NCBI RefSeq assembly: GCF_044324875.1
Contig: NZ_CP172185.1
Source of the DNA: Escherichia coli
Lineage (GTDB): Bacteria > Pseudomonadota > Gammaproteobacteria > Enterobacterales > Enterobacteriaceae
Strand: one strand, 5' to 3'
Length of the DNA: 64,000 nt
The notes beneath the pieces were generated by a model. It did no database searches and was not told the origin of the DNA. It worked only from the letters and a program-made list of their open reading frames with translations. The position numbers were made by a program, and so were the translations under genes. The stretch's first letter is position 1, and each line of letters begins with the position of its first letter. This document shows positions 17,593 through 17,738 of this stretch, one piece after another.

Positions 17593-17738
17593 GTAAACTC
17601 CGGGCAAACTATCTGCCGCTATCATAGCGGTTTTTCAGTGACGAAGAAGATGTTGTTACTTTTCAGTGCTTGCCGCGATGAAAACAGAGGCGTATTTTAA
17701 TAATAACGTTCGTATACGAACAATTAAGAGAATAAACA

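Follow-up and report, generated by a model that had tools for sequence, protein, structure and literature searches.

MarR and SlyA share with HosA a winged-helix dimer and a palindromic operator near a promoter, and they too are released by phenolic ligands, salicylate being one. MarR has two sites in its own operon, over the -35/-10 and over the ribosome-binding site. PcaV of Streptomyces coelicolor is a MarR dimer that represses protocatechuate catabolism and is freed from its palindromic operator by a hydroxybenzoate-type ligand. In Bacillus subtilis, BsdA is the divergently encoded regulator of bsdBCD, a homologous B-C-D operon induced by hydroxybenzoates; BsdA is a LysR-type activator, whereas HosA is a MarR repressor. 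The closest described system is that of uropathogenic Escherichia coli UMN026. As summarized in two preprints on HosA structure, HosA of this strain represses the hydroxyarylic-acid-decarboxylase (HAD) operon and its own gene (Roy & Ranjan 2016, Biochemistry 55:1120). According to the same two summaries, the HosA site is palindromic and lies downstream of the HAD-operon transcription start, HosA is a steric block to RNA polymerase, and 4-hydroxybenzoate releases it. A 14-bp palindromic HosA site was tested by electrophoretic mobility shift assay (EMSA) and biolayer interferometry, and 4-HBA was found to release HosA (Sci Adv 2018, PMC6261655); ITC data on the effect of 4-HBA have been published as well. 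The switch has since been reused in biosensors (Sci Adv 2018, PMC6261655; Nat Commun 2019, PMC6694116). The literature reached through the HosA PDB codes contained apo and ligand-bound structures only, with no DNA complex.

The E. coli DNA analyzed here, a stretch of 64,000 nucleotides (the window), carries the HosA/HAD system itself and not merely a similar one. Shared with UMN026 are a HosA about 96% identical to the crystallized protein, the operator with its flanks, the order rpoS-hosA-ecdBCD and the ligand 4-hydroxybenzoate. The operator is identical, and the differences are a stop codon in subunit D and five HosA substitutions that include G45S. The full gene order is rpoS, hosA (minus strand), ecdB, ecdC, ecdD, pphB, a TPR gene and mutS, which places the locus between rpoS and mutS on the E. 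coli chromosome; it was carried by 2,404 of 5,426 complete E. coli genomes. The original prediction had placed a MarR-family gene divergently beside a B-C-D decarboxylase operon, and both parts of that description were borne out by the HosA match and by the NCBIfam models VdcB, VdcC and VdcD. A spacer of 146 bp (17593-17738) separates the MarR-family gene from ecdB. We estimate a probability of roughly 85% that this spacer is the control region of the HosA/HAD (ecdBCD) system of the mutS-rpoS polymorphic region, with palindrome 2 as the single HosA operator of Escherichia and palindrome 1 most likely the -10 region of hosA. HosA in Escherichia would thus differ from MarR at marO in having a single site, just past the start of the divergent operon.

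Table 1. Features of the hosA-ecdBCD locus, in window coordinates
Feature	Coordinates	Strand	Basis or remark
hosA, MarR-family repressor	17185..17592	-	135 aa plus stop; PDB HosA match
hosA ribosome-binding site, GGAG	17598..17601	-	5 nt before ATG; putative role
Palindrome 1, CCGCTAT-C-ATAGCGG	17616..17630		present; core and right flank conserved only
Probable hosA -10 hexamer, TATGAT	17621..17626	-	conservation; putative
Predicted ecdBCD -35, TTGCCG	17670..17675	+	conservation across 75 loci
Predicted ecdBCD -10, TATTTT	17693..17698	+	TAnnnT conserved; putative
HosA operator O1 (palindrome 2), GTTCGTATACGAAC	17708..17721		published oligonucleotides and conservation
ecdB ribosome-binding site, AAGAGA	17726..17731	+	8 nt before ATG; putative role
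ecdB, subunit B (UbiX-type flavin prenyltransferase)	17739..18332	+	NCBIfam NF041206 VdcB, 312.8 bits (cut-off 290)
ecdC, subunit C (UbiD-family decarboxylase)	18332..19759	+	NCBIfam NF041204 VdcC, 789 bits (cut-off 650)
ecdD, subunit D, interrupted by TAG at 19872-19874	19770..20006	+	NCBIfam NF041205 VdcD matches 34-aa remnant

The product of the MarR-family gene matched the PDB "Transcriptional regulator HosA" (8aga and six other entries) with an E value of 4.4e-81 in phmmer, and 129 of 134 residues were identical to those of the crystallized protein. MarR Pfam domains were found precomputed on close homologues of the window protein. The NCBIfam models for SlyA (27 bits against a cut-off of 120) and MarR (24.7 against 240) both fell far short. 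Judged by these sequence comparisons, the gene is hosA. PcaV (PDB 4fht/4g9y) was the next-best solved relative (E = 6.6e-15); it is distant in sequence, has another operator and another target pathway, and is a different member of the family. The five substitutions relative to the crystallized protein, which is from EPEC, are G45S, V49A, E111A, A119G and N134S, and G45 was otherwise near-invariant among 13 aligned homologues.

Both palindromes that the original prediction had placed between the divergent genes were present at the positions given. Palindrome 1, CCGCTATCATAGCGG, has 7-bp arms around a central C; palindrome 2 is even, with 7-bp arms, and its center lies 24.5 bp before the ecdB ATG at 17739, where about 25 bp had been predicted. 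Palindromes of this size were not in excess over chance in the 64-kb window: there were 10 with 7-bp arms and none longer, against 10.1 ± 3.0 expected from first-order Markov simulation, and 49 of the 300 simulated sequences had two of them no more than 100 bp apart. The pattern GTTCGNNNNCGAAC occurred once in the window, against 0.08 expected. Given the lack of a statistical excess, palindrome 2 owes its significance to its conservation and to published experiments.

The HosA operator already known from the literature is palindrome 2. The oligonucleotides DNAHosA-F0/R0 (flanks CAGAGGCGTATTTTAATAATAAC and AATTAAGAGAATAAACAATGAG; PMC6261655 supplement) matched window positions 17686-17744, and GTTCGTATACGAAC was found exactly within oligonucleotide T_H of the same supplement; these oligonucleotides served in the published EMSA and biolayer interferometry of HosA. 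In Supplementary Table S1 of that paper, the HosA site is given as GTTTCGTATACGAAC, of 15 nt, on both complementary oligonucleotides. The additional T is probably a typographical error, since it is impossible on both complementary strands, the text of the paper states 14 bp, and T_H reads GTTCGTATACGAAC; it could mislead users of the sensor. A full-text literature search for the exact operator string returned no match. The HosA/4-hydroxybenzoate switch was thus already characterized and already in use as a biosensor part, and the rediscovery of its operator from raw sequence shows that such a scan can succeed but brings no new biology. What the present analysis adds is a footprint over 75 loci that defines the motif as GTTCG-YRYR-CGAAC and sets it a constant distance away from a conserved promoter, a second upstream HosA-like site that many genera have and Escherichia has lost, and the recommendation that palindrome 1 not be treated as an operator. 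These additions may be of use in porting the HosA sensor and in comparing the regulation of phenolic-acid decarboxylases across enteric bacteria.

For the comparison, a scan of one genome per species yielded 80 loci with HosA relatives, from Escherichia, Klebsiella, Enterobacter, Citrobacter, Salmonella, Kluyvera and Kosakonia through to Rahnella, and ecdB was divergent from hosA in 75 of the 80. Conservation per column was taken from a MAFFT alignment of 68 orthologous spacers, with identity measured to the window sequence. GTTCG-N4-CGAAC was present in 71 of the 75 orthologous loci and the shorter TTCG-N4-CGAA in all 75, from Escherichia to Rahnella. Among the 71 loci with the strict motif, 68 had the center of the operator 22-26 bp ahead of the ecdB ATG. 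In the 68-spacer alignment, 17708-17721 was the most conserved 14-mer of the spacer (95% identity versus 46% elsewhere), and the outer five arm pairs of palindrome 2 were complementary in 68 of 68 orthologues. The center was always YRYR, as TATA (26 loci), TACA (22), TATG (10), TGTA (9), CATA (3) or TGTG (1). Eight further E. coli alleles were sampled, with spacer identities down to 90%, and palindrome 2 was unchanged in every one; three other Escherichia species had TGTA at the center. The alignment thus indicates that the HosA motif consists of two 5-bp half-sites, GTTCG and CGAAC, set 4 bp (YRYR) apart; as the half-sites are invariant while the center varies, a perfect palindrome is not required. 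A HosA dimer would most likely contact the invariant half-sites on either side of the variable YRYR.

A generic sigma-70 scan of 17000-17900 found no promoter at threshold, so the promoter calls in Table 1 are based on conservation across genera. The best-scoring ecdBCD -35 began with TTG in almost all 75 loci, with TTGTCA the commonest form, and the spacer between -35 and -10 was 17 bp in 69 of the 75. The operator began 9-10 nt past the TAnnnT -10 in 58 of 75 loci. From this arrangement, we infer that ecdBCD transcription starts near 17705 and that the operator lies at about +4 to +17. Such a position would agree with that given in the preprint summaries of the HAD operon. The original prediction had an operator overlapping a promoter; palindrome 2 instead lies just downstream of the predicted -35 and -10 and does not cover the hexamers. 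At about +4 to +17 of the predicted promoter, bound HosA would be expected to stop RNA polymerase as it initiates or shortly afterwards. Binding of 4-hydroxybenzoate would then cause HosA to leave the DNA and ecdBCD to be de-repressed; of these steps, binding and release are taken from published experiments. At the position of the putative ecdB ribosome-binding site, the orthologues carry a GAGG-like block.

A second HosA-like site, GATCGTRTACGAAC, was found in 35 of the 75 loci, 56-57 bp upstream of the main operator. It abuts the predicted ecdBCD -35 and lies 79-84 bp before the ecdB ATG. Its carriers belong to Klebsiella (e.g., L007, L011, L028), Enterobacter (e.g., L040, L042, L044), Kluyvera, Leclercia, Lelliottia, Pseudocitrobacter and Phytobacter; in the 75-locus comparison, it was absent from Escherichia, Salmonella and Citrobacter. 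This distribution suggests two-operator control in the genera that have GATCGTRTACGAAC. A further candidate, from the Enterobacter group, was an apparently covarying inverted repeat around GGATTTTAACGCG; it was dropped, as it was not consistently kept.

That both palindromes are operators responsive to phenolic acids, as had been proposed, held for palindrome 2, the published HosA site from which 4-hydroxybenzoate releases the repressor, and was not supported for palindrome 1, which shows no likeness to the HosA motif, no conserved symmetry and a core that resembles the -10 element of hosA. A search of the spacer for the HosA motif found O1 only, with no other 14-mer within 3 mismatches of GTTCGTATACGAAC. 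Conservation in palindrome 1 was limited to CTAT-S-ATAG in the middle and GC(G/C)G on the right flank. Counted from the outermost pair inward, its arm pairs were complementary in 33, 16, 6, 44, 61, 67 and 66 of 68 orthologues, and the 7-bp arms were kept in 3 of 68. Identity was 87% for the right arm and 69% for the left, and G17618 was kept in about 9% of orthologues (6/68). Two-fold symmetry was thus not maintained among the 68 orthologues. Within Escherichia, two changes in the left arm were uncompensated on the other arm, namely C17616T in the major divergent E. coli allele and C17619A in Escherichia sp. E1V33.

Read on the hosA strand, the core of palindrome 1 has the features of a -10 element. 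TAT[CG]AT was present in 67 of 75 loci and lay 27-32 nt (mostly 28-29) before the hosA ATG in 65 of the 75, and conservation reached 90% or more at each of T1, A2, T3, A5 and T6; the other variants, TAAGAT, TAAAAT and TATTAT, retain T1, A2 and T6. The longer reading (C/G)GC-TAT(C/G)AT is followed, after about 22 nt, by the GGAG ribosome-binding site, whose complement, a CTCC block, was 80-90% conserved in the 68 orthologous spacers. CATGATA variants leave the hosA-strand hexamer intact and lose the one on the opposite strand, and the best -35 match averaged 3.3/6 on the hosA strand versus 1.6/6 on the other. TTAAAA, 17 bp upstream of the hosA -10, was the commonest -35 (26 of 53 loci scored) and occurred in most genera. 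We conclude that palindrome 1 is probably not an operator and that its core most likely belongs to the hosA promoter as the -10 region. The 7-bp symmetry of the palindrome would then be a chance mirroring, in some Escherichia alleles, of the G/C-rich upstream flank by the non-conserved discriminator.

The window itself has CTTCTT as the putative hosA -35, with 2/6 matches. The Escherichia spacer measures 146 bp versus about 170 bp elsewhere, owing to two deletions of about 13 and 12 bp within 17627-17669. The 13-bp deletion falls directly after ATAGCGG and brought the ancestral TTAAAA to within 5 bp of the hosA -10, which accounts for the poor -35 of Escherichia. It may thus be that the proposed hosA promoter is weak, or that another one is in use. 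The sole HosA motif is some 90 bp away from the proposed hosA -10, on its upstream side, and the reported autorepression is left unexplained by our model.

One way to accommodate these observations is that Escherichia rewired its HosA switch: the 13- and 12-bp deletions would have removed a second HosA site, such as Klebsiella, Enterobacter and Kluyvera have beside the operon -35, and displaced the hosA -35, and compensation would have come from palindrome 1 as a lineage-specific regulatory site at the hosA promoter or from a distal hosA promoter with its -35 inside O1. Such a promoter can be drawn on the minus strand, with TTGTTC (17723 to 17718) as the -35, an 18-bp spacer and TAAAAT (17699 to 17694) as the -10, and equivalents can be drawn in most orthologues. 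The bases concerned are already conserved for plus-strand reasons, so this is not independent evidence. If the distal promoter were real, a single operator would serve to repress the promoters on both sides, and this would account for the autorepression that has been reported. We consider this rewiring unlikely.

We hold it quite improbable that palindrome 1 is the site of a different dimeric regulator controlling hosA. CTAT-S-ATAG and the GCSG flank are conserved from Escherichia to Enterobacter, with 80-90% column identity, over a stretch that exceeds a bare -10 hexamer. This conservation is, however, asymmetric (right arm 87% versus left 69%), the second half-site is not conserved, the pattern agrees with a -10 hexamer and a -14G/-13C flank upstream of it, and there is no known candidate factor.

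It also appears very improbable that both palindromes are HosA operators, with palindrome 1 at the hosA promoter for autorepression and palindrome 2 for ecdBCD. HosA autorepression is reported in the HosA-structure preprints as summarized above, an overlap of palindrome 1 with the likely hosA -10 would be the classic MarR autoregulatory layout, and Escherichia is without the second HosA-like site of other genera. Against this, palindrome 1 is unrelated to the operator, O1 being the only site within 3 mismatches, complementarity of its outer pairs is kept in no more than 6-33 of 68 orthologues with the Escherichia arm changes uncompensated, and the binding of unrelated palindromes by one MarR dimer would be unusual.

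Least credible, to the point of being highly improbable, is that palindrome 1 and the T-run at 17631-17635 form a plus-strand intrinsic terminator or insulator that keeps antisense-to-hosA transcription, e.g., rpoS read-through, from entering ecdBCD: a consensus scan does flag GCCGCTATCATAGCGGT followed by TTTTCAGTGA as terminator-like, the RNA hairpin has -9.8 kcal/mol (z = -2.3) and a U·G pair is still possible in the plus-strand RNA of the C17616T allele, but the stem is short and followed by 5 T only, rpoS already has a strong terminator at 17078-17111, a hairpin of -6 kcal/mol or lower beside a T-run is present in 22 of 65 orthologues with a mean z of -0.2, no better than shuffled sequence, and Rfam gave no family match in the spacer.

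The rpoS terminator is a strong hairpin with a 15-bp stem. It was the only element that Rfam picked up, at 17078-17118, as ctRNA_p42d with 28.7 bits where the gathering score is 50; this sub-threshold match is almost certainly a mere hairpin resemblance.

An in-frame ATG at 17623-17625 lies at the exact center of palindrome 1 and would add 11 codons to hosA; the program-made list of open reading frames gives this longer frame, from the ATG at 17625. The longer frame was rejected, since every aligned homologue starts at the equivalent of 17592: the N terminus reads M-[AEK]-L-[RK]-[NS] in 12 of 12 aligned homologues, and PGAP uses the equivalent position in strain A10.

By NCBIfam, the products of the divergent operon are subunits B, C and D of a non-oxidative hydroxyarylic acid decarboxylase, and PGAP annotates ecdB identically in strain A10. 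Relative to strains A10 and 50579417, codon 35 of ecdD (19872-19874) is changed from TGG to TAG, which leaves 34 of 78 residues. This TAG was absent from all 612 complete E. coli genomes that match the 44-bp stretch concerned, so ecdBCD may be non-functional in the source strain alone.

The mutS-rpoS region is known to have a mosaic structure. Differences from the nearest genome were clustered, in a way that looks like ordinary mosaic allelic variation. Strain 50579417 (14476-20475) has a ygbN-ygbI block between ecdD and pphB, whereas the corresponding part of the window (20048-21592) is without it and has a TPR-repeat gene adjoining pphB. In one E. coli match, hosA abuts an SLC13 permease gene instead.
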